A DNA stretch of 64,000 nt from positions 27,898 through 91,897 of the forward strand of contig JAJQHS010000030.1 of assembly GCA_021199635.1 (NCBI GenBank), written 5' to 3'. The notes beneath the pieces were generated by a model. The model did no database searches. It saw only the letters and a list, made by a program, of their open reading frames with translations, and was not told the origin of the DNA. Shown in pieces: positions 6,342 to 45,309 of this stretch. Position 1 is the stretch's first letter. Each line of letters starts with the position of its first letter. Both the position numbers and the translations under genes were made by a program. This DNA is from Bacillota bacterium. GTDB taxonomy: Bacteria; Bacillota; Clostridia; Oscillospirales; Oscillospiraceae.

Positions 6342-7058
6342 TCAGCCCGCCGTTCGCGCCGCGGCGCGGAACGTGCGGTACTGCCGGGTGCCGTCCCCGT
6401 CCGTCACCCGTTTGCGCTCGGTCAGCACGCAGCCGGTGAAGGTATCCGTCATGCCGTCCCGGGTCAGCACCGCCGTGCAGCTGCCCGAGATCTCCGCAGG
6501 CTCGGTGACGCCGGTGGGGAAATATTCCTCCACCGTGCAGTACCAGTAGGCATTGCTGATGGAGTATACCGGCGCGCCGTCGGAATCCGTCTGGGCGGTG
6601 ATGCTGTCCCGCTCGTCCTGCTCCGCGGTGAAGCCCACCGCGTACTCCAGCGTGTTCCCCGCCAGCGTCACGGTGAAGGTGGACGGCTCCGGCACGGTCA
6701 CCGCCGTCCAGGAATCCGGCAGCGCCTGGCCATAGTACACGGCCAGCACCGGGATGCGGCACATATTCATCTCGCCGTCGAATTCATAGGCCTCCTGGCG
6801 GCACACCGCGCCCGCCTCCGCCAGCACCTGGCAGGCCAGCAGTGCCGTCTTCTCGCAGCGCTCCCCGCTGATGTTATAGGCGGCCACGATGTCCACCCGC
6901 ACGGTGATCTCGCCGGTGCCCTGGTCCATCTGCTGCAGGCTCACCGCCGCCACAGGGGTCTGGATGGCCATCATCCGCTCCGCAGGATACGCCCGCGCGG
7001 CGCGCACACCGCCGTCCTGCAGGGTCTGGATCACCTCATCTACGATGGATAGCCCCAA
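6342..7058 (-). CDS. Phage-cassette protein of unknown function (last gene, in the position of head-tail joining / neck proteins)
   Basis: 238 aa. TTG start preceded by GGGGAGG, overlaps the upstream gene by 19 nt. I recognise no motif; the assignment is by position only. Confidence 0.55.
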   Translation of the reverse strand: MGLSIVDEVIQTLQDGGVRAARAYPAERMMAIQTPVAAVSLQQMDQGTGEITVRVDIVAAYNISGERCEKTALLACQVLAEAGAVCRQEAYEFDGEMNMCRIPVLAVYYGQALPDSWTAVTVPEPSTFTVTLAGNTLEYAVGFTAEQDERDSITAQTDSDGAPVYSISNAYWYCTVEEYFPTGVTEPAEISGSCTAVLTRDGMTDTFTGCVLTERKRVTDGDGTRQYRTFRAAARTAG

Positions 7059-7390
7059 TTGTCTGCCTCCCCTCTGCGTTCACAGATGCCCCAGCACCCC
7101 ACCAGCGTATCCCGGCAGTACACCGGCTCCACCCGGCGGACCGTGTACCAGGTCTCGCCCACATAGAAAATATCCCCCTCCACCAGCAGCGGCTCCGCCG
7201 GGAGCAGCATGGTGTACTGGCTCCAGGGGATCTGCCCCACCGGGGACTGGACGATCTGCATATTCATCCGGCTCAGCGAGCCGGTATGCTGGACGCAGCC
7301 CCGGACGGTGAAATCCCCCGTCACCCGGCGGACGGTGATGGCCGTGCCGTAGCGGGTGAGGATGCTGTCCACCAGCGCCTTCATCCTCAC
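7040..7390 (-). CDS. Phage head closure / head-tail adaptor-like protein
   Basis: 116 aa. Size and position right after the connector gene fit. GTGA overlap with the upstream stop; an alternative ATG lies at 7384. Confidence 0.6.
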   Translation of the reverse strand: MRMKALVDSILTRYGTAITVRRVTGDFTVRGCVQHTGSLSRMNMQIVQSPVGQIPWSQYTMLLPAEPLLVEGDIFYVGETWYTVRRVEPVYCRDTLVGCWGICERRGEADNWGYPS

Positions 7391-7743
7391 ACCCCCATAA
7401 AGGAGAACCCGTCCCGCACATAGGGCAGCATCAGCATCTCCGCCTGGTAGCGCAGGCAGCAGGCCGCCGCGTTGGGGCTGCTGCGCCGGAGGGTCAGGTC
7501 GCCCAGCTGGATCTGCGCCATCTGGCCCACCTCATCCGTGTCCGACAGCGCCGCCAGGGCGTACAGGCTGGCGGCGGCGATGAAATCCGCCTTGCAGTCC
7601 TCCGGCGCGACACCCGGGCGCAGCTTCCGCCGCAGGGCGTTCTCCGATGCCCGGCAAAGCACCTCCAGCAGCGCGGTTTTCTCCTCCTCCAGGTCCTGGG
7701 CCAGCACCAGCGCCTGGGCGTAAATCTGCTCCGTCAGCGTCAT
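7387..7743 (-). CDS. Phage head-tail connector (gp6-like DNA-packaging/connector protein)
   Basis: 118 aa helical protein directly downstream of the capsid gene, with an ATGA stop/start overlap at 7740-7743. Confidence 0.6.
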   Translation of the reverse strand: MTLTEQIYAQALVLAQDLEEEKTALLEVLCRASENALRRKLRPGVAPEDCKADFIAAASLYALAALSDTDEVGQMAQIQLGDLTLRRSSPNAAACCLRYQAEMLMLPYVRDGFSFMGV

Positions 7744-8765
7744 ACGTTCAGGACCGCGGCGGCGCCGTCGCAGATTTTGCCGAATCCGGCGATGGCGGTG
7801 ATGGCGGCGCGCTCCAGCTGCCGGTCGATGAGCTTGTCATACTCCACCAGCACGTCCCCGGCGCGCACCTGCTCCAGCGCGTAGCGGCTGTCCAGGCCGA
7901 TGATGACCCCGTCGGCCACGGCGCTGGTGCGGTGCAGATGGGCGCCCAGGGGGGTGGTCAGCTTGCCGGTGCCCTGGAAATTCAGCCCGGTCAGGGGGTT
8001 CTGCAGCTCGGGGATCTTCAGCATCTGCGTCATGGTGGCGGTGGAGCAGAGCAGGGTATTCATGGTGTACGGGTCAAACTGCCCCCAGAATTCCACCATC
8101 TGGCCATATTCCAGGGTCCCCACGGTGCCGGAGATGGGGCTGGTGCCCACGGTGTACTGCACGGCGGCATTCTCGTTGCCGTCGCCGCTGATCAGCACAT
8201 TCACCGCGTCCGCCAGCTGTTGCTTCTGGATATACGCGCCGATCTGCCGGAGCATCACGCCGAACAGGTCCAGCTTCTGGAAGCGCAGCGCCTCGTAGCT
8301 TGCCACCAGCATCCTGCCACGCTTGCTCAGGGAGATCAGGTGCTCCTTGGTGGACACTTCGGTGGTGGGGATCTCCTCGCCCTCCGCCACGTCCTGCAGC
8401 GCCTTGTCCGCGTCCGTGGGGTTGGAGTAGATGGAGCGGTAGTCCAGGGAGTCGATCACCGTGGTGGTAGCGGTGATGGCGGGCAGGATATCGTTTTCCT
8501 CCATGCCCTGGCGGACGGAGCGGGCGATGTACTCCGGGAACAGCACCGCCGAATCCATGGTGCGGAAAAATTTCTCCACAGGGGAGGAGCCGGCGCCCTT
8601 CACCCGGATGCCGAAGCGCTTCAGCTGCCGCTGGAACGCGTCCGTGCCCTCCAGCGCCGTGCCCCGGTAGTTCTCGCTGGGGTCCAGGGATTCCAGCACC
8701 TGGGTGAAGCTCATGCCGGACTGGCGATACATGCCCTTTTCCAGTTTCAGATTGTCGTAGCCCAT
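7740..8765 (-). CDS. Phage major capsid protein (HK97-fold family)
   Basis: 341 aa. Length, position after the protease gene and overall sequence resemble HK97-type major capsid proteins. Confidence 0.8.
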   Translation of the reverse strand: MGYDNLKLEKGMYRQSGMSFTQVLESLDPSENYRGTALEGTDAFQRQLKRFGIRVKGAGSSPVEKFFRTMDSAVLFPEYIARSVRQGMEENDILPAITATTTVIDSLDYRSIYSNPTDADKALQDVAEGEEIPTTEVSTKEHLISLSKRGRMLVASYEALRFQKLDLFGVMLRQIGAYIQKQQLADAVNVLISGDGNENAAVQYTVGTSPISGTVGTLEYGQMVEFWGQFDPYTMNTLLCSTATMTQMLKIPELQNPLTGLNFQGTGKLTTPLGAHLHRTSAVADGVIIGLDSRYALEQVRAGDVLVEYDKLIDRQLERAAITAIAGFGKICDGAAAVLNV

Positions 8766-8830
8766 TTTTGTTTCCTCCTAGATTGAATAATTATGGCTTC
8801 CGGGGTTTTCCCGGCAAAACCTGAGAACGA

Positions 8831-9727
8831 TCAGATCAGAAATCCGATCTCCATATCCTCCCGCCGGCTCTGCGGCGGCAGGAGCTGGCGTGTGACCGGC
8901 AGGGACTCCGCCAGGCGTGCGTCCAGGGCGTCCCGCAGCTTTTCCAGGTCGCTGTGCCCCAGCTTGTCCGTGATGGCCCGCAGCACCGGTTCCTCCACGC
9001 CCAACTCCAGCCCCAGGCACAGCCGCACCACCTGGTCGCGGAGCTGCTTCTCGTACTGGCGCCCGGCCTGGGCCAGCGCGTCCAGCGCCCGGTATTCCGC
9101 CTGCGCGCCGAATTCCTCCGCCAGCGCCTTCAGCGCCGGGGCGCCGCGCCCCATGCCCTTGATCACGCCGGCCTCCCGCTGGGCGGGCACCGCCACGAAG
9201 GAAAATTCGTAGGCGTCCATCGGCTCTTTGAGGATCACGCTGCACATCTGCCCGTCGTAGCATTCGCCCTTCTGGTGGCCGCAGGTCCCGTAATCGCCGC
9301 CGCAGATGGAGCAGACCGCCCGCCCCATGGCGCAGCCCACGGAAACCTCCTTCTTGATGCCCGCCTCGATGTCCGCGATGATCTCCTCCGCCTGGCCGCC
9401 CCGGCGGATGTACGCCCATGCCTTGATATAGCTGACGCCCGCATCCTGCACCACCTGGGTCTGGAAAATGCGGGCCACCTGGCCGTCGCTGGTCCATTTG
9501 TGGTCCAGGATCCCGGTTTTGCCCAGGAACAGCCGGGCAAGCTCCGGCAGGGCGGCGGTATCGAACCGCTCCCCGTCCCGGTCGATCTGGTCGTCGCACA
9601 GCCGCAGGGAGAAGACATACACCTGCTGCGCCGTCAGGCGGGTGCGGGCCTGGGCGTTGATGGCCTCCAGCTGTGCCGGGGTGGGCACGCCGCTGGCGCC
9701 CACCTGGCTCTCCTTCTTGATTTCCAT
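8831..9727 (-). CDS. Phage prohead protease with Cys-rich insertion and C-terminal coiled-coil (scaffold-like) region
   Basis: 298 aa. GILDHKW and EVSVGC segments resemble the His and Ser regions of prohead serine proteases. Contains a cluster of 6 Cys plus 1 His. RBS GGAGGA precedes the ATG. Confidence 0.65.
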   Translation of the reverse strand: MEIKKESQVGASGVPTPAQLEAINAQARTRLTAQQVYVFSLRLCDDQIDRDGERFDTAALPELARLFLGKTGILDHKWTSDGQVARIFQTQVVQDAGVSYIKAWAYIRRGGQAEEIIADIEAGIKKEVSVGCAMGRAVCSICGGDYGTCGHQKGECYDGQMCSVILKEPMDAYEFSFVAVPAQREAGVIKGMGRGAPALKALAEEFGAQAEYRALDALAQAGRQYEKQLRDQVVRLCLGLELGVEEPVLRAITDKLGHSDLEKLRDALDARLAESLPVTRQLLPPQSRREDMEIGFLI

Positions 9728-38126: not shown

Positions 38127-39608
38127 ATGAACAATATTCCCGAAATCAAGCTGGGCTTGATCGCCGTATCCCGGGATTGCTTCCCCATCTCCCTGTCCAC
38201 GCAGCGCAGGAAGAATATCATGGCCAGCGCCAAGGACCTGCCCCTGTACGAGTGCCCGATCACCGTGGAGAACGAGAAGGATATGGAGCAGGCCGTCGCC
38301 AATGTGACCGCCGCCGGATGCAATGCCCTGGTGGTATTCCTGGGCAACTTCGGGCCGGAGACGCCGGAAACCCTGATCGCCAAGTTCTTTGACGGGCCTT
38401 GTATGTTCGTGGCCGCCGCAGAGGGCGACGGCGACATGATCAACGGCCGGGGCGACGCCTACTGCGGCATGCTCAACTGCTCCTACAACCTGGGCATGCG
38501 CCACCTGAAGGGCTACATCCCCGAGTACCCCGTGGGCACGGCGGAGGAGATCGCCGCCATGATCGCGGACTTTGTCCCCGTGGCCAGAGCCATCGTCGGC
38601 CTGAAGAACCTGAAAATCATCTCCTTTGGCCCCCGTCCCCAGGATTTCTTCGCCTGCAACGCGCCCATCAAGGGACTGTACGAGCTGGGCGTGGAGATCG
38701 AGGAGAACTCCGAGCTGGACCTGCTGGTCAGCTATAAGGCCCACGCCGGGGATCCCCGGATCCCCCAGGTCTGCAACGATATGGCGGCGGAGCTGGGCGT
38801 TTCCGGCAACCAGTACCCCGACCTGCTGCCCCGGATGGCGCAGTTCGAGCTGACGCTGCTGGACTGGGCGGAGGCCCACAAGGGCGCCCGGAAATATGTG
38901 TGCTTCGCGGACAAGTGCTGGCCGGCATTCCCCAGCCAGTTTGGGTTTGAGCCGTGTTATGTAAACTCCCGCCTGGCGGCCCGGGGCATTCCCGTGTCCT
39001 GCGAGGTGGACATTTACGGCGCGCTGTCCGAGTATATCGGCGCCTGCATCACCGGCGACGCGGTCACGCTGCTGGATATCAACAACTCCGTGCCCAAGTA
39101 CATCTACGACGAGGACATCGCCGGGAAGTACGATTACAAGCTCACCGATACCTTCATGGGCTTCCACTGCGGCAATACCCCGGCGTGCAAGATGTGCAGC
39201 GACCGGGCGGTGAAATATCAGCTGATCCAGCACCGGCTGCTGGAGCCGCAGGACGCGGAGCCGGACTTCACCCGGGGCACGCTGGAGGGCGACATCGCCG
39301 CCTCCCCCATCACCTTCTACCGGCTCCAGTGCGACAGTGAGGGCAAGCTGCGCTCCTACATCGCCCAGGGCGAGGTGCTGGACGTGAAGACCCGCTCCTT
39401 CGGCGGCATCGGCATTTTCGCCATCCCGGAGATGGGACGGTTCTACCGCCATGTGCTGATCGAGAAGCGCTATCCCCACCATGGGGCGGTGGCCTTCGGC
39501 CATTGCGGCAAGGCGCTGCACAGCCTGTTCCGCTACCTGGGCGTGGAGGATATTGCCTACAATCAGCCCAAATCCCTGCCCTATCCCACGGAGAATCCCT
39601 GGGGCTGA
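38127..39608 (+). CDS. L-fucose isomerase-family sugar isomerase (FucI/AraA-like)
   Basis: 493 aa. N-terminal block (LGLIAVSRDCFP...ALVVFLGNFGPE) and overall length resemble L-fucose/L-arabinose isomerase family proteins. RBS AAGGAGG. Confidence 0.75.
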   Translation: MNNIPEIKLGLIAVSRDCFPISLSTQRRKNIMASAKDLPLYECPITVENEKDMEQAVANVTAAGCNALVVFLGNFGPETPETLIAKFFDGPCMFVAAAEGDGDMINGRGDAYCGMLNCSYNLGMRHLKGYIPEYPVGTAEEIAAMIADFVPVARAIVGLKNLKIISFGPRPQDFFACNAPIKGLYELGVEIEENSELDLLVSYKAHAGDPRIPQVCNDMAAELGVSGNQYPDLLPRMAQFELTLLDWAEAHKGARKYVCFADKCWPAFPSQFGFEPCYVNSRLAARGIPVSCEVDIYGALSEYIGACITGDAVTLLDINNSVPKYIYDEDIAGKYDYKLTDTFMGFHCGNTPACKMCSDRAVKYQLIQHRLLEPQDAEPDFTRGTLEGDIAASPITFYRLQCDSEGKLRSYIAQGEVLDVKTRSFGGIGIFAIPEMGRFYRHVLIEKRYPHHGAVAFGHCGKALHSLFRYLGVEDIAYNQPKSLPYPTENPWG

Positions 39609-39642
39609 GGATAACCCATAGTCCCTTTTCCCACGCGCACCG

Positions 39643-39673
39643 GCCGGCTCACATCCCTGTGAGCCGGCTTTTT
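39643..39673 (+). terminator. Rho-independent terminator after the isomerase gene
   Basis: Perfect 11-bp stem GCCGGCTCACA/TGTGAGCCGGC followed by TTTTT. Confidence 0.85.
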
Positions 39674-39677
39674 ACTG

Positions 39678-39740
39678 CCCCACCCACTCCCGCAGGGTCG
39701 TGTGCCCACGCACGGCCAGCACCCGGCCCACAAGGGCAAA
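39678..39740 (-). repeat. Dispersed intergenic hairpin repeat, copy D (reverse orientation; core 39696-39717)
   Basis: The reverse complement reads GCTGGCCGTGCGTGGGCACACGACCCTGCGGGAGTGGGTGGGG, aligning with copy A with a few substitutions. Confidence 0.75.
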
Positions 39741-39805
39741 AAAGTACCCCGCTTTCCGTCGGGGACCGGCGGGAAGCGGGGTGGATTTTCCGTAAAACAG
39801 AGCGC

Positions 39806-40849
39806 TTACGCCTGCTCTGCCCGGGCCATAGCCAGCTGGAAGTCCTTGGTATCGGTGAAAATCTCGTTGGTATACGGATTCTTCTTCTGCTGGATGGAAC
39901 GCTTGATGATAATGGCCAGAACAGCCACGTTGATTGCCAGCGAGGCAATGGACAGCACGCCCTGGGGCACCGCGTTCACGGCAGTGGGACGGGTCGCCGC
40001 GTCCATGAAGCCGTCGGCGTACAGCACAGGGAGGGTGGTGAACACGCTGTTGTCCTGGAACAGGGGGAACACCTGGGCAAACATGCACCACAGCGCCAGG
40101 GTATTGGCACGGTTCTGGATCCAGCCGCCCTTGTTCCACAGGGCATTGGCCACAGTGGGCGCCAGCAGCAGCGCCAGGCCGCAGTACCAGGCGTGGGTGG
40201 GCAGGTTCAGGTAGGTGTACTGGAAGTTCCAAACGTCATACGCCAGGATGTACAGCCACATCATGTCCGGCCAGAGCATATCCTGCTTCTTCTTGGAGGT
40301 GTAGATGCCCCACCAGCCGGTCATGCAGAAGATGTTGATGATGCCCGCGAAGCCGTTGAGCCAGTTCCACCAGCCGCCGTAGAGCCACACGTTCTCACTG
40401 GAGAGCCACCAGCGGTCGCCGTACTCCTTCATGGCCTGGGCGCCCTTGATGGCGGACTCGAAATCGCTGGCCACCGCGATGAGGATGTTGATGGCCACGA
40501 TGACGAACGGGAACACCTTGAACCACTCCGTCTTGCCGATGCTCCACTTATACTTGAGCATCATGAAGCCGATGCACCCGGCGGTGGCGGCGTAGAGTTT
40601 GGCATAGTGGAACCAGCTGTTCATGTACACATAGGTGTCATTGGTCAGCGCCCACTCCGCGCCCATCGCCGCGCCTACATAGATGGAAATGAAGTACACC
40701 GTCAGCGCCCCGGGGATTGCCAGGAAGCAGATGATGCCGCCGACCTTGGAGCGGCGGGCGAATTCATTCGCCAGGATCAGCCCCAGGAACACAAGCAGCC
40801 AGCCCAGCAGCTGGTATCCGGCGGTATCGCCATAGATTTGAAATAACAT
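39806..40849 (-). CDS. Uncharacterised polytopic membrane protein, Trp-rich (last gene of the hypB operon)
   Basis: 347 aa, about 9-10 predicted TM segments, 20 Trp by my count. Starts 12 nt after the hypA stop with RBS GGAGG. No transporter signature recognised. Confidence 0.7.
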   Translation of the reverse strand: MLFQIYGDTAGYQLLGWLLVFLGLILANEFARRSKVGGIICFLAIPGALTVYFISIYVGAAMGAEWALTNDTYVYMNSWFHYAKLYAATAGCIGFMMLKYKWSIGKTEWFKVFPFVIVAINILIAVASDFESAIKGAQAMKEYGDRWWLSSENVWLYGGWWNWLNGFAGIINIFCMTGWWGIYTSKKKQDMLWPDMMWLYILAYDVWNFQYTYLNLPTHAWYCGLALLLAPTVANALWNKGGWIQNRANTLALWCMFAQVFPLFQDNSVFTTLPVLYADGFMDAATRPTAVNAVPQGVLSIASLAINVAVLAIIIKRSIQQKKNPYTNEIFTDTKDFQLAMARAEQA

Positions 40850-40860
40850 AGATTATCCTC

Positions 40861-41208
40861 CTAAATTGCCTCAATTTCTTTGATATTCAGTTCATTCCCC
40901 CGCAGGAGCCAGGTTTTTTCGCTGCCGCAGTAGGGACAGATCCGGCCGTGTGCCACCGTCCCATATTCCTGCGCGCAGTCCTGGCACCAGGACACGGCGG
41001 GAAGGACCTCCGTTTTCATTTCGCAGCCCAGAAGCGGCGGCTCCCGCTTCTGCACTGCCCAGCGCCAGCAGTCGGTGAGGTAATCCGGGATCACCGTGGA
41101 TACCTCGCCAACCTGCAGCGTGACGCTGTGGATCTGGGTCAGGTGATTTTCCTCGGCCACCGCCTGGAGGCTGTCCATCACCTGAAATACAATGCCCAGC
41201 TCGTGCAT
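40861..41208 (-). CDS. hypA: Hydrogenase/urease nickel insertion protein HypA
   Basis: 115 aa. N-terminal MHE nickel motif and CQDC...CPYC zinc site. Confidence 0.9.
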   Translation of the reverse strand: MHELGIVFQVMDSLQAVAEENHLTQIHSVTLQVGEVSTVIPDYLTDCWRWAVQKREPPLLGCEMKTEVLPAVSWCQDCAQEYGTVAHGRICPYCGSEKTWLLRGNELNIKEIEAI

Positions 41209-41209
41209 A

Positions 41210-44023
41210 TCACCGTTCCTTCTGCGCCTTGTTCGCCCGATGCTCCGCCCGCTTGATCTTGATCTCCCGCTTGAGCATATAGGGCAGGATGGCCTTCATC
41301 TTGTCCTCGGTGCGGTACATCTTGGAGGCGGCAGGCAGCTCACGGTGCAGATGGATGGCGTCGAAGCTGCACTTGGTGGTGCAGATGCCGCAGCCGATGC
41401 ACTTGTTGGGGTCCACCACGGACGCACCGCAGCCCAGGCAGCGGGCCGTCTCCGCCTTGACCTGCGCCTCGGTGAAGGGCAGGCGGGCATCCCGGAAGGA
41501 ATGCTTCTGGTCGATGGCGGCATCCGTCCCGGGGATCTGCCGGGCGGAATTGTCATACTGCTCCACCACGATATTGTCCTTGTCCAGCTGGATGAAATCG
41601 TTCCGGTTCCGGCCGATGGTCAGGCTGGCGCCGGGCTGGACGAAGCGGTGGATGGAGATGGCACCCTGCTTGCCGGCGGCAATGGCATCAATGGCGAATT
41701 TGGGGCCGGTGTAGACGTCGCCGCCTACGAAAATGTCCGGCTCGCCAGTCTGATAGGTCAGCGCGTCGGCCACCGCGCCGCTGCCGCGGCCCAGCTCCAC
41801 GCGGGAGCCTTCCAGCAGCCCGCCCCAGAGGATGCTCTGGCCGATGGACAGCAGCACATGGCTGCATTCCACGGTGATGGTGTCGTCCTCGTCATACGCG
41901 GGCTGGAAGCGGCCGTTTTCGTCCCACACCCGGGTGCAGCGCTTGAATACGATGCCGCTGACCCGGCCATTCTCCGTGAGGATCTGCTTGGGGCCCCAGC
42001 CGCAGGTGACGGTGACGTCATCGGCCTCGGCCTCGGCGATCTCCTCTTTGGAGGCGGGCATTTTGTCCCGCGGCTCCAGGCAGAACATGGAAACGGATTC
42101 CGCGCCGCAGCGGACAGCGGAGCGCGCCACGTCCACGGCCACGTTGCCGCCGCCGACCACGACAGTCTTCCCAGTCAGGCGATAGCCCTCGTTGGCGCCC
42201 ACGGTCCGCAGGAAGTCCACGGCGGTCATGACGCCCTCGGCGTCCTCACCCTCCACGTTGGCCTTTCTGCCGCCCTGGCAGCCGATGGCGATGTAGAAGG
42301 CCTTGTAGCCCTGCTCCCGCAGCTGCGCCAGGGTGATGTCCTTGCTCACCTCTACGCCGCAGCGGATCTCCACGCCCATCTCCTGCAAAATGGCGATTTC
42401 CCCGTCGATCACGTCCTTCTCCAGCTTGAAGGAGGGGATGCCGTAGCGGAGCATGCCGCCGGGCTTCTCGTTCTTCTCAAACACCACGGGGCGGTAGCCC
42501 TTCTCCGCCAGATAGTACGCGCAGCTCAGGCCGGCGGGGCCTGCGCCAATGATGGCGATCTTCTCCTGGAATTCGCCCTCTACCTTGGGGATGACCTTGG
42601 GCGGGATGTAGCGGTGCTCCGCGTCCAGGTCCTTCCGGGCGATGAACTTTTTCACCTCGTCGATGGCAACGGCCTGGTCGATGGTGCCCCGGGTGCAGGC
42701 ATCCTCGCAGCGGCGGTTGCATACGGCGCCGCACACGGCGGGGAAGGGGTTATTCTTCTTGATCAGCGCCAGCGCCTCGGTGTACCTGCCCTGGGCCGCC
42801 AGCTTCAGGTAGCCCTGCACGGCGATGTGGGCGGGGCAGGCGGTTTTGCAGGGAGCGGTGCCGGTGTCGTAGCAGTTGATGCGGTTGTTGTCCCGGTAGT
42901 CCACGTCCCATTTTTCCGGGCCCCACTTGGTTTCGTCCGGCAGCTCGTGCTTGGGGTAGACGATGGGCCCGTCCTTGGTGCAAAGCTTCTGCCCCAGCTT
43001 CACCGCCCCGGCGGGGCAGAACTCCACGCACCGCCCGCAGGCCACGCAGTTTTCCGGCTCCACTTTGGCCACATATGCGCTGCGGCTCATGTTGGGGGTG
43101 TTGAACAGCTGGGAGGTGCGCAGGGCGTTGCACACGTTGATGTTGCAGTTGCAGATGGCGAAGATCTTCTCCTGCCCGTCGATGTTGGTGATTTGGTGGA
43201 CGAAGCCGTTCTCCTCCGCCTTGCGGAAGATGTCCATGGCACCGTCGTAATCCACGTAGCGCCCGCGGCCGGTTTCCACGATGTAGTCCGCCATGTCGCC
43301 CACGGCCACGCACCAATCCTCGAAGCTGTCGCCGCAGCCCTCGCCCAGCTTCTCCTTGCTCATCCGGCAGGAGCAGGGGGAGGCGGCGAACTTATTGTAC
43401 TTCTTCAGCCAGTAGGAGATATGCTCCAGGTCGATGGAGGTATTCTCCGCCTCGATGGCCTTCTCCACCGGGATGACGTGCATGCCGATGCCTGCGCCGC
43501 CTGGGGGCACCATAGCGGTGATGTTCTCCAGGGGCAGGAAGCTCATCCGCTCGAAGAAAGCCGTCACCTCCGGGGTTTGGTCCACCTGGGATTTGCGCAT
43601 ATTGAAGAACTCAGCGCTGCCGGGGACGAAGCGCCCCAGCACATACCGCTTCTCGTGATTGGGATTTTTGCCGTCCAGATTCTCCCAGTGGTACTCGATC
43701 AGGCCGACGTAGGCCATCTCGTCCAGCAGCTTCTGGAGCGCGCCCTCCTCCATCCCGGTGAGGCGGGTGAGCTGGGCCAGGGTTTTGGGCTTACGCACGC
43801 CCATTTTCAGGGCGACGTCCGCCATCTCGTCGGTGACCACGCCGGCCAGCCCCCAGTATTCGGGGTCGTCCTTTGTGACCTTCACGCCGATCCGGTCGGT
43901 GATCATCTGCCCCAGCTGGATGATTTTCTCCCGCACAGGGCCTTCACACTCCGGAATGGAGAAAGGCAGCTTGGATTCATCCAGGGGCATATTGGTAGCC
44001 TTGCTTCCGTTAATATCTCGCAT
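41210..44023 (-). CDS. Large Fe-S flavoprotein oxidoreductase: unknown Cys-rich N-terminal region, ferredoxin-like 4Fe-4S motifs, GltD-like NAD(P)H/FAD domain, C-terminal 4Fe-4S ferredoxin motif
   Basis: 937 aa from the ATG at 44023 (RBS AGGAG). CVACGRCVEFCP and CIGCGICTTKC motifs, GltD-type CKTACPAH...CNRRCEDAC, dinucleotide fold IAIIGAGPAGL and VVVGGGNVAVD. Confidence 0.8.
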   Translation of the reverse strand: MRDINGSKATNMPLDESKLPFSIPECEGPVREKIIQLGQMITDRIGVKVTKDDPEYWGLAGVVTDEMADVALKMGVRKPKTLAQLTRLTGMEEGALQKLLDEMAYVGLIEYHWENLDGKNPNHEKRYVLGRFVPGSAEFFNMRKSQVDQTPEVTAFFERMSFLPLENITAMVPPGGAGIGMHVIPVEKAIEAENTSIDLEHISYWLKKYNKFAASPCSCRMSKEKLGEGCGDSFEDWCVAVGDMADYIVETGRGRYVDYDGAMDIFRKAEENGFVHQITNIDGQEKIFAICNCNINVCNALRTSQLFNTPNMSRSAYVAKVEPENCVACGRCVEFCPAGAVKLGQKLCTKDGPIVYPKHELPDETKWGPEKWDVDYRDNNRINCYDTGTAPCKTACPAHIAVQGYLKLAAQGRYTEALALIKKNNPFPAVCGAVCNRRCEDACTRGTIDQAVAIDEVKKFIARKDLDAEHRYIPPKVIPKVEGEFQEKIAIIGAGPAGLSCAYYLAEKGYRPVVFEKNEKPGGMLRYGIPSFKLEKDVIDGEIAILQEMGVEIRCGVEVSKDITLAQLREQGYKAFYIAIGCQGGRKANVEGEDAEGVMTAVDFLRTVGANEGYRLTGKTVVVGGGNVAVDVARSAVRCGAESVSMFCLEPRDKMPASKEEIAEAEADDVTVTCGWGPKQILTENGRVSGIVFKRCTRVWDENGRFQPAYDEDDTITVECSHVLLSIGQSILWGGLLEGSRVELGRGSGAVADALTYQTGEPDIFVGGDVYTGPKFAIDAIAAGKQGAISIHRFVQPGASLTIGRNRNDFIQLDKDNIVVEQYDNSARQIPGTDAAIDQKHSFRDARLPFTEAQVKAETARCLGCGASVVDPNKCIGCGICTTKCSFDAIHLHRELPAASKMYRTEDKMKAILPYMLKREIKIKRAEHRANKAQKER

Positions 44024-44702
44024 GGGTTTCTCCTTTCCATTGATTGACTTCTTCCCGCAGCCATTGGGCGACTGCGTCCACACCCTCGCCGGTCCTGGCG
44101 CTGATGGGGAAAATCCGGGCGTTGGGGTTGCGCATGTGGATGTATTCCCGGCATTTGTCCAGATCAAAGTCGAAGTAGGGCAGTACATCCATCTTGTTGA
44201 GGATGACAGCATCGCAGACCTGGAACATCAGGGGATACTTCAGGGGCTTGTCGTGTCCCTCCGGGACGGACAGGATCATGCAGTTCTTCACCGCGCCGGT
44301 GTCGAATTCCGCCGGGCACACCAGGTTCCCCACATTCTCCAGGATCACCAGATCCAGCGCCTGCGGGTCCAGGCCCTGAAGCCCCTGCCGGGTCATCGCC
44401 GCGTCCAGGTGGCACATGCCCCCGGTGTGCAGCTGGATGGCCTTCACGCCTGCTTCGGCCATGGCTCTGGCGTCCACATCGGAGTCGATATCCGCCTCCA
44501 TCACGCCGATGCGCAATGTGGGCTTCAGCAGCGGGATCAGGCGCTGCAGCGTGGTGGTTTTCCCGGAGCCGGGGGAGGACATCAGGTTGAGGAGGAAGAG
44601 CTTCCGCTCCTTCAGCTCCTGGCGCAGCTCCTCCGCCCGGGCGTCGTTTCCGGCGAATACGCTCTGCTTGATTTCCAGAATTTTTACTTCCTGCATGGGC
44701 AC
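44010..44702 (-). CDS. hypB: Nickel-incorporation GTPase HypB
   Basis: 230 aa. P-loop SSPGSGKTT and ENVGNLVCPA motifs. The stop overlaps the next gene's start by 14 nt. Confidence 0.9.
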   Translation of the reverse strand: MPMQEVKILEIKQSVFAGNDARAEELRQELKERKLFLLNLMSSPGSGKTTTLQRLIPLLKPTLRIGVMEADIDSDVDARAMAEAGVKAIQLHTGGMCHLDAAMTRQGLQGLDPQALDLVILENVGNLVCPAEFDTGAVKNCMILSVPEGHDKPLKYPLMFQVCDAVILNKMDVLPYFDFDLDKCREYIHMRNPNARIFPISARTGEGVDAVAQWLREEVNQWKGETHARY

Positions 44703-44748
44703 GCTCCTTCGCTTGCCATCCGGAAGGATGGCAGATTCTCACAATTGT

Positions 44749-44777
44749 AGTGTACACTTTCCTGCAAAAAATGTCAA
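44749..44777 (-). promoter_or_regulatory. Predicted sigma-A promoter of the hypB operon
   Basis: Minus strand reads TTGACA, 17 nt, TACACT. The leader contains an 8-bp hairpin (44714-44733) just before the RBS. Confidence 0.55.
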
Positions 44778-44784
44778 CATTCCC

Positions 44785-44798
44785 CAGGAAATTTCCTG
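44785..44798. promoter_or_regulatory. Perfect 14-bp palindrome CAGGAAATTTCCTG immediately upstream of the hypB -35 (candidate operator/activator site)
   Basis: Read directly from the sequence. The centre lies 37.5 bp upstream of the -10 hexamer. The same GGAAATTTCC core recurs at 56999-57010. Confidence 0.45.
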
Positions 44799-44841
44799 AA
44801 AAAAAGAGAAAAATTTCCGATCTGTTCACGCACCCCGAGCC

Positions 44842-44890
44842 CCCAAATCCGGCGCGGATGCTGGCCGTGTGTGGGCACACGGCCCTGGTT
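44842..44890 (+). repeat. Dispersed intergenic hairpin repeat, copy E (core 44863-44884)
   Basis: CCCAAATCCGGCGCGGATGCTGGCCGTGTGTGGGCACACGGCCCTGG; perfect core with a truncated right flank. Confidence 0.85.
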
Positions 44891-44902
44891 GTTCCTTTGC
44901 AA

Positions 44903-45181
44903 TTAGCCGTTGGCACGCATCTGCGCGAAGCACTCGCTGCAGTACACGGGACGGTCGGACTTGGGCTCGAAGGGTACCTTCGCCTCGCCGCCGCAGCGGG
45001 CGCAGGTAGCGGTGAAGAACTCACGGGGGCCACGGGCGCTGTTCTTACGAGCATCACGGCAGGCCTTGCAGCGCTGGGGCTCATTCTGGAAGCCGCGCTC
45101 TGCGTAGAACTCCTGCTCACCGGCGGTGAACACGAACTCCTTGCCGCACTCTTTGCAAACTAAAGTCTTGTCTTCGTACAT
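44903..45181 (-). CDS. Small zinc-ribbon protein (zf-trcl-like, two CxxC pairs twice)
   Basis: 92 aa. CKECGKEFVFTAGEQEFYAERGF...CKACR followed by CARCG...CSEC. RBS AAGGAG. Confidence 0.8.
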   Translation of the reverse strand: MYEDKTLVCKECGKEFVFTAGEQEFYAERGFQNEPQRCKACRDARKNSARGPREFFTATCARCGGEAKVPFEPKSDRPVYCSECFAQMRANG

Positions 45182-45280
45182 GGATATTACCTCTCCTTGG
45201 TTGAATGCCCCGTGAAAGCCCGTTGATTGTATGGTCGTAACGCGGAGTCATAAAAATGTGTGGGAATCCCACCAAATGCC

Positions 45281-45309
45281 ATTATACACAATTGTTTCTG
45301 AAAAGTCAA
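45281..45309 (-). promoter_or_regulatory. Near-consensus sigma-A promoter of the zinc-ribbon gene
   Basis: Minus strand reads TTGACT, 17 nt, TATAAT, in a locally AT-rich region. Leaves a leader of about 95 nt. Confidence 0.65.

Follow-up and report, generated by a model that had tools for sequence, protein, structure and literature searches.

The closest described relative of the system reported here is Acetobacterium wieringae's isr operon. Isoprene induces this operon, which encodes the 901-residue flavoprotein IsrA, two HypA proteins, HypB and a ferredoxin, in an organism whose genome has neither a [NiFe]-hydrogenase nor hypCDEF (Kronen et al. 2023, PMC10134865). IsrA is a putative isoprene reductase and is suspected to be a new kind of nickel enzyme. 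The nickel site proposed by its authors is a six-cysteine "cluster V", with the CxC motifs Cys180/182 and Cys254/256, which they likened to P-type and double-cubane clusters and also to the A-cluster of acetyl-CoA synthase (PMC10134865). Among the neighbours of 988 "clade 9" homologues of IsrA, HypA has a frequency of 0.73, HypB of 0.56, DUF5692 of 0.40 and TetR of 0.21 (PMC10134865). In Pelotomaculum, according to two 2026 preprints, isoprene induces hypA about 370-fold and hypB about 585-fold.

Here, we analysed a stretch of 64,000 nucleotides (hereafter the window) from a Bacillota bacterium of the Oscillospiraceae. Its minus strand carries four consecutive genes in head-to-tail order, from 44696 down to 39806. 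They encode HypB, a 937-residue Fe-S flavoprotein, HypA and the Trp-rich membrane protein DUF5692. Judged by its architecture and its neighbours, the flavoprotein very probably belongs to the IsrA-type family. We consider it fairly probable, if far from certain, that the four genes form a self-contained IsrA-type operon for an NAD(P)H-driven alkene reductase, with a six-cysteine centre to which HypB and HypA supply nickel, and with DUF5692 as membrane partner. A sequence-only reading of the window had proposed an unrecognised nickel-dependent redox enzyme at this place. Co-occurrence and linkage support the proposal, but the same hypothesis had already been put forward by Kronen et al. in 2023. 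Hence, the arrangement was published before and this locus adds no new kind of thing.

The flavoprotein and its six-cysteine site

The core of the flavoprotein resembles the module shared by NfnB, GltD and the N-terminal part of dihydropyrimidine dehydrogenase (5jca, 4ylf, 2vdc, 1gt8; also 9bov, 8oh5 and 9n5u). It combines PF14691 (Fer4_20, two [4Fe-4S] clusters) at residues 384-465 with PF07992 (Pyr_redox_2, FAD/NAD(P)H-binding) at residues 488-784, and the solved structures nearest to it are 9bov_A (E 3.7e-95), 8oh5_C, NfnA 9n5u, and NfnB 5jca and 4ylf. Ferredoxin-type Fer4 motifs stand on both sides of this core, at about residues 326-336 and 869-890, the latter matching PF00037 at 869-890. 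In contrast to NfnB and GltD, the protein adds an N-terminal domain of 330 residues and the C-terminal ferredoxin motif, and it has no NfnA or GltB partner gene. We rejected an identity as glutamate synthase or Nfn subunit, since the operon lacks the gene for such a partner and the protein misses the NCBIfam cut-offs. It scores 263 against a cut-off of 472 for TIGR01316 and 260 against 483 for TIGR01318, and every other model is also below its cut-off.

The N-terminal part had been described from the sequence as an unknown Cys-rich domain. Searches of residues 1-300 against Pfam and NCBIfam matched no family, in agreement with this description, and all the motifs quoted for the protein could be located: PCSC at 216-219, CNCNINVC at 291-298, the ferredoxin-type motif CVACGRCVEFCP at 326-337 and the C-terminal ferredoxin motif CIGCGICTTKC at 875-885. 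The flavoprotein has at least 8000 homologues, the top 120 being mostly full length, and its N-terminal domain is matched by 1436 representative proteins at E<=1e-3. We aligned the domain in sets of 16, 11 and 48 sequences, the last with 33-74% identity to the window protein. Exactly six cysteines of the domain are invariant in these alignments, C217, C219, C238, C291, C293 and C298. The residues R220 and H276 show no or almost no variation, and the seventh cysteine, C230, varies. The adjoining ferredoxin cysteines C326, C329, C332 and C336 are invariant or nearly invariant in the same alignments, and those of the C-terminal motif are invariant in one of them.

Structure prediction of the N-terminal region, which the sequence-only reading had suggested, gave an AlphaFold2 model of moderate confidence (pLDDT 76). 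Its one fold match in the PDB is a winged-helix subdomain at about residues 60-130, for which Foldseek returned only regulators of the MarR/ArsR type (best E 0.07). The same Foldseek search of the domain against the PDB found nothing like the A-cluster domain of acetyl-CoA synthase, CO dehydrogenase, nitrogenase or double-cubane proteins.

The likeness to IsrA is extensive. Both proteins are about 900 residues long and combine an unannotated N-terminal domain with a GltD/NfnB-like core and two additional motifs of the ferredoxin type. The two CxC pairs are 74 residues apart in IsrA and in the window protein (C217/C219 and C291/C293). Relative to IsrA, the coordinates of the window protein are shifted by +37 at the first ferredoxin motif and by about +11 at the C-terminal one. 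This drop fits a private 26-residue insert of IsrA that, to judge by the offsets, is apparently absent here. The operons are alike in that hypA and hypB are adjacent and the genome has no [NiFe]-hydrogenase, and DUF5692 is a frequent neighbour of IsrA homologues. They differ in gene order, which is hypB, enzyme, hypA, DUF5692 in the window and isrA, hypA, hypB, a 350-residue ferredoxin and a second hypA in isr. That ferredoxin is a paralogue of the N-terminal domain; the window operon has neither a ferredoxin paralogue nor a second hypA. The hosts differ too, A. wieringae being an acetogen and the host of the window a gut-type Clostridia known from a metagenome assembly. This suggests that the substrate here is probably not isoprene.

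HypA, HypB and their putative client

The chaperone genes are linked to this enzyme far beyond the genus of the host. We compared the best 60 loci that encode a full-length relative with 20 GltD-like control loci that lack the N-terminal domain. The phyla represented among the 60 are Bacillota, Actinomycetota (Collinsella, Atopobiaceae), Bacteroidota, Spirochaetota and Chloroflexota, and gut and rumen are the main sources. Cultured carriers include Pseudobutyrivibrio ruminis AD2017, Kineothrix alysoides KNHs209 and Collinsella sp. wc0529. An adjacent HypA is encoded at 47 of the 60 loci, HypB at 28 and DUF5692 at 22 (0.78, 0.47 and 0.37), in agreement with the published frequencies. The best 80 loci returned include none from Acetobacterium or Pelotomaculum. 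None of the three is adjacent in any of the 20 control loci. The exact gene order of the window recurs in six loci, mostly from metagenome-assembled genomes of Bacteroidales/Bacteroidaceae, and in those congeners whose loci extend far enough. In the genus, the 8 of 19 genomes that have hypA are exactly those that have the N-terminal domain (p = 1e-5, Fisher test, here and below uncorrected for phylogeny). DUF5692 occurs in those eight and in one incomplete genome, and ten genomes have neither hypA nor DUF5692 (p = 1e-4). Co-occurrence of the four-gene block in relatives had been named as a check; hypA, the N-terminal domain and DUF5692 occur together in eight of the 19 genomes, and the linkage recurs in loci from five phyla.

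Some loci depart from this pattern. In another genome of the genus (G008) the block is split, with DUF5692 at C23:22883-23875 and the flavoprotein and hypA at C39:16041-19168. A Bacillota metagenome-assembled genome has two hypB genes in tandem upstream of the IsrA-like gene (L062:5042-6426). An uncultured Eubacteriales carries a divergent pair of full-length IsrA-like paralogues, at L030:3246-5996 (-) and 6929-9709 (+), in a locus where HypA, HypB and DUF5692 were undetected. A predicted membrane protein of just 107-148 residues recurs in L032, L034 and L035 and also in L055 and L068; in the Bacteroidales operons its gene stands between hypA and DUF5692.

HypB scores 235 bits with TIGR00073 (cut-off 121) and also matches PF02492. 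Its P-loop GSGKTT, Cys95-His96, Cys127 and NKxD are at least 90% conserved among 28 operon-linked HypBs. As read from its sequence, it has no His-rich or N-terminal high-affinity site. HypA scores 104.7 bits with PF01155 (against 28.9) and 69 with TIGR00100, which is below the cut-off of 88 and fits a divergent HypA subfamily. Its Met-His-Glu nickel motif and the zinc-site cysteines C75, C78, C91 and C94 are at least 90% conserved among 47 operon-linked HypAs. The nickel and zinc ligands, as read from these alignments, are intact in the operon-linked chaperones. The sites are the same as in HypA and HypB of the Escherichia coli [NiFe]-hydrogenase and the Helicobacter pylori urease: Met-His-Glu, Cys4, Cys-His...Cys and the GTPase motifs. 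The difference lies in the client, here presumed to be the flavoprotein, in a genome with no hydrogenase large subunit, HypD or urease.

The usual clients were sought in the whole host genome, a 1.95-Mb assembly that is 95% complete and in which the window lies within contig 60. The [NiFe]-hydrogenase large subunit (PF00374) is absent from it and from 18 other genomes of the genus, and HypD (PF01924) and the urease alpha subunit are absent from the host genome. The sequence-only reading had seen no hydrogenase, urease or cooS near the operon. For hydrogenase, HypD and urease this extends to the entire genome; it does not for the other nickel enzymes, as CooS with a probable CooC and two LarA-like proteins are encoded on other contigs than the operon. 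A hydrogenase elsewhere in the genome, combined with a linkage that relatives do not keep, had been named as the outcome that would speak against the proposal. We found the reverse on both counts, no PF00374 and a conserved linkage.

The presence of these other nickel enzymes raises the question of whether hypA and hypB are simply a displaced pair that matures CooS or a LarA-type enzyme, with a functionless adjacency to the flavoprotein. The genome does encode CooS, the anaerobic CO dehydrogenase (TIGR01702, 607 bits; C61:9642-11504, with the next gene in locus L012:5604-8290), besides the two LarA-like proteins. Yet, the gene directly after CooS encodes a 255-residue ATPase of the MinD/ParA type that is probably CooC, and LarA enzymes obtain their cofactor from LarB, LarC and LarE. 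CooS and the LarA-like enzymes are each known to rely on a maturation system of their own. In addition, CooS is distributed independently of hypA among the 19 genomes, with both in 6, hypA only in 2 (G005, G010), CooS only in 7 (G001, G002, G003, G006, G009, G017, G018) and neither in 4 (Fisher p = 1.0). Two of the genomes with CooS only, G002 and G006, are 99% complete. By contrast, hypA tracks the N-terminal domain in eight genomes out of eight, and its adjacency to the flavoprotein gene recurs in five phyla and is missing from the GltD-like loci without that domain. The displaced pair, which the sequence-only reading had held out as its second option, is therefore disfavoured and we regard it as very improbable. 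CooS stands alone in the host genome, and no acetyl-CoA synthase genes were seen nearby.

The flavoprotein as client of the chaperones would also account for the uneven linkage of the two. Of 20 other genomes bearing the operon, 12 lack PF00374, and a full HypB is encoded in all 20. The operon includes hypB in 11 of the 12 genomes that lack hydrogenase and in 2 of the 8 that have one (p = 0.004). The enzyme seems to need HypB and, in genomes with a hydrogenase, apparently makes use of the hydrogenase's copy. This would explain the lower linkage frequency of HypB compared with HypA.

DUF5692 and the possible substrate

The last gene of the operon encodes a full-length member of DUF5692 (PF18948, 459.5 bits against a gathering threshold of 27, model positions 2-304 of 304). 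Its AlphaFold2 model (pLDDT 79) has nine predicted membrane helices, and a Foldseek search against the PDB gave no significant match (best E 0.7, TM-scores of at most 0.25). In the alignment of the family 59 residues are invariant, and Asn, Asp, Trp and Tyr make up many of these. A text search of the literature for DUF5692 found one paper, that of Kronen et al. 2023 (PMC10134865).

DUF5692 is also found outside IsrA-type operons. PF18948 occurs in 16 of 401 evenly drawn Actinomycetota genomes, a sample in which Bifidobacterium is possibly rare or absent. The ten proteins looked up are all from Coriobacteriia and the remaining ones match Collinsella-type sequences, so that all 16 are apparently from Coriobacteriia. 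A homologue search with a Collinsella DUF5692 also returned only Coriobacteriia names. In 16 Coriobacteriia loci with DUF5692, which reach up to four copies per genome, no gene for HypA, HypB or an IsrA-like protein lies closer than about 8 kb, and the neighbours include TetR. In three Eggerthellaceae (L121, L123 and L125, in G446, G122 and G107), a lone DUF5692 gene lies within a few genes of fumarate-reductase-type flavoproteins of the FAD_binding_2 family, 616-643 residues long. Possibly, more than one kind of reductase has DUF5692 as its partner.

A hint at the substrate comes from three IsrA-type loci that lack DUF5692 (L055, L061 and L072). Directly upstream of hypB, and on the same strand, they encode a 439-residue protein that matches PDB 2B9W from end to end (E 6e-50). 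2B9W is the structure of the Cutibacterium acnes polyunsaturated fatty-acid isomerase (PAI), an enzyme that converts linoleate into a conjugated diene. The window has no homologue of it. DUF5692 is itself reminiscent, in size and predicted nine-helix topology, of BBI (or LAI), the membrane linoleate isomerase of Bifidobacterium breve, which has about 330 residues and nine membrane helices and whose knockout leaves 0% conversion. TetR regulators are linked both to BBI and to the loci of DUF5692 and IsrA-type enzymes. In a Pfam tally of 128 genes flanking about 50 loci, the only recurrent families beside the PAI-like gene were TetR (8 genes) and GntR/FCD (5). These regulators are in keeping with a module that responds to a small hydrophobic ligand as inducer.

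One might instead speculate that DUF5692 imports nickel, the operon then combining uptake, chaperones and client. Its co-transcription with nickel chaperones is in favour of this, as are the conserved His, Cys, Met and Asp in or near its membrane helices and its co-occurrence with hypA in the genus (both in eight genomes, DUF5692 alone in one, neither in ten). But DUF5692 is outside the nickel transporter families of Pfam and NCBIfam, where it matches none of NiCoT, CbiMNQO/NikMNQO, NikABCDE and HupE/UreJ, and its fold resembles nothing solved. It is found at just 22 of the 60 loci, three of those without it carry a homologue of a soluble fatty-acid isomerase in its stead, and the Coriobacteriia loci hold it apart from any chaperone gene. 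Together, these points make substrate handling a likelier role than that of a dedicated nickel permease, and we think a nickel importer quite improbable.

Our preferred reading, a nickel-loaded alkene reductase with a membrane partner, would work as follows. Electrons from NAD(P)H would enter at the GltD/NfnB-like FAD module of the 937-residue protein and run along the [4Fe-4S] clusters to the N-terminal site of six invariant cysteines. HypB, as GTPase, and HypA would load nickel into this site, as they do elsewhere for hydrogenase and urease. The enzyme would then hydrogenate a C=C bond in a substrate that is hydrophobic and probably conjugated. Isoprene or butadiene would be candidates by analogy with Acetobacterium, whereas in the gut or rumen a conjugated fatty acid or a terpenoid seems more likely. 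DUF5692 would be the membrane partner for the lipophilic substrate, as isomerase or translocator, and probably not a device for nickel. Its role, the reaction and the substrate are inferred here, as is nickel in the six-cysteine site. For nickel in the enzyme we see a little better than an even chance. That the substrate is a conjugated fatty acid in particular is a tentative suggestion, and clearly less likely than not. One might go further and suppose that the gut and rumen branch of the family is the missing reductase of fatty-acid biohydrogenation, with DUF5692, or at some loci a PAI-type enzyme, isomerising linoleic or linolenic acid in the membrane to a conjugated diene and the flavoprotein, matured by HypA and HypB, hydrogenating this unactivated diene with NAD(P)H at a nickel-containing six-cysteine centre, but we think this unlikely.

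Several points weigh against this reading. The link to IsrA (VUZ27132.1) is drawn from a common architecture and a common gene neighbourhood. The statistics on phyletic patterns ignore phylogeny, and many of the genomes are incomplete metagenome assemblies. CooS and the two LarA-like enzymes could in principle be clients of HypA and HypB. DUF5692 has conserved H81, C92, D190, M191, D195, H219, C223 and C255, which a metal permease could share. The isomerase neighbour is seen in three of 60 loci only and the window itself has no pointer to a substrate. Finally, the six-cysteine site could hold an iron-only cluster, and metal analysis or biochemistry of any member was not found in the literature on the IsrA family, the Pelotomaculum preprints included.

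This last point is the basis of another explanation, in which the six cysteines bind a double-cubane or P-cluster-like Fe-S centre and HypA and HypB serve for nickel buffering, for another metal or as a scaffold. The resemblance that Kronen et al. see to P-type and double-cubane clusters, beside that to the A-cluster, is consistent with it, as is the fact that hypA is not adjacent in about one quarter of the loci. Yet, purifying selection acts on the Met-His-Glu motif of HypA and the Cys-His...Cys site of HypB in the copies linked to the operon, all 20 operon-bearing genomes retain a hypB, which lies in the operon where hydrogenase is absent, and isoprene co-induces the chaperones with the enzyme. 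An iron-only enzyme thus seems to us an improbable outcome, although a more serious one than the nickel importer.

Layout of the operon and significance

The features of the locus are collected in the table below. The early description of the operon, with hypB and hypA on either side of one large Fe-S flavoprotein gene and the gene of the Trp-rich membrane protein last, proved accurate for every open reading frame. Direct reading of the sequence also bore out the tight junctions, a 14-nt overlap between hypB and the flavoprotein gene, a 1-nt gap (TGA-T-ATG) before hypA and, before the DUF5692 gene, a gap of 11 nt that contains the ribosome-binding site GGAGG. Each of the four genes is preceded by a ribosome-binding site. 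For hypB this is GAAGGAG, ahead of the ATG at 44696, the GTG at 44702 given in the list of open reading frames being two codons further upstream.

Features of the hypB-flavoprotein-hypA-DUF5692 locus, in coordinates of the window
Feature	Position	Strand	Remarks
hypB, HypB nickel-binding GTPase chaperone	44010..44696	-	228 aa from ATG at 44696
IsrA-type Fe-S flavoprotein (putative nickel-dependent alkene reductase)	41210..44023	-	937 aa
N-terminal domain, residues 1-320	43064..44023	-	without Pfam family
Six-invariant-cysteine stretch, candidate nickel/unusual-cluster site ("cluster V" of IsrA)	43130..43375	-	also contains R220 and H276
Ferredoxin-type motif C326-x2-C329-x2-C332-x3-C336-P	43013..43048	-	CVACGRCVEFCP, residues 326-337
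GltD/NfnB-like core	41672..42874	-	PF14691 + PF07992
C-terminal ferredoxin-type cysteines C862, C865, C875, C878, C881, C885	41354..41440	-	
hypA, HypA nickel metallochaperone	40861..41208	-	115 aa, PF01155
DUF5692 Trp-rich polytopic membrane protein	39806..40849	-	347 aa, PF18948
Sigma-70-like promoter TTGACA-17-TACACT	44749..44777	-	10/12 positions match
Perfect palindrome CAGGAAATTTCCTG	44785..44798		abuts -35 hexamer on its upstream side; read directly
Terminator-like stem-loop then T-run, 3' of last gene	39735..39783	-	also given as about 39745-39783

The promoter TTGACA-17-TACACT that had been noticed ahead of the operon is present and is the sole match on the operon strand in 39500-45300. 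Such sites are not rare by chance, with 3 found in the region against 1.7 expected, which is statistically weak, and its assignment to the operon is suggestive only. The palindrome that abuts it may be the site of a regulator. In contrast to many relatives, no TetR or GntR gene stands beside the operon. Among the sequencing runs containing the operon that we searched, none was clearly an RNA run. Beyond the terminator, and convergent on it, a gene at 38127-39608 (+) encodes a 493-residue protein that carries the L-fucose isomerase C-terminal domain. Its match to sulfoquinovose isomerase is weak (52 bits, where the cut-off is 700).

Our comparison adds three regularities to what was described for the family: the six invariant cysteines, the presence of hypB in the operon where hydrogenase is absent, and the replacement of DUF5692 by an isomerase gene in some loci. 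The locus is a compact four-gene version of the system and as such convenient for heterologous expression. If nickel truly resides in the six-cysteine site, these enzymes would be a new class of nickel enzymes and, next to hydrogenase and urease, the third kind of client of HypA and HypB. Metagenomes of gut and rumen contain the family in great abundance. Should its members hydrogenate dienes of dietary lipids or terpenoids, this would bear on conjugated linoleic acid and on the formation of trans-fatty acids in ruminants and humans, and a role in biohydrogenation, if true, would place a new class of nickel enzymes in a nutritionally important pathway.

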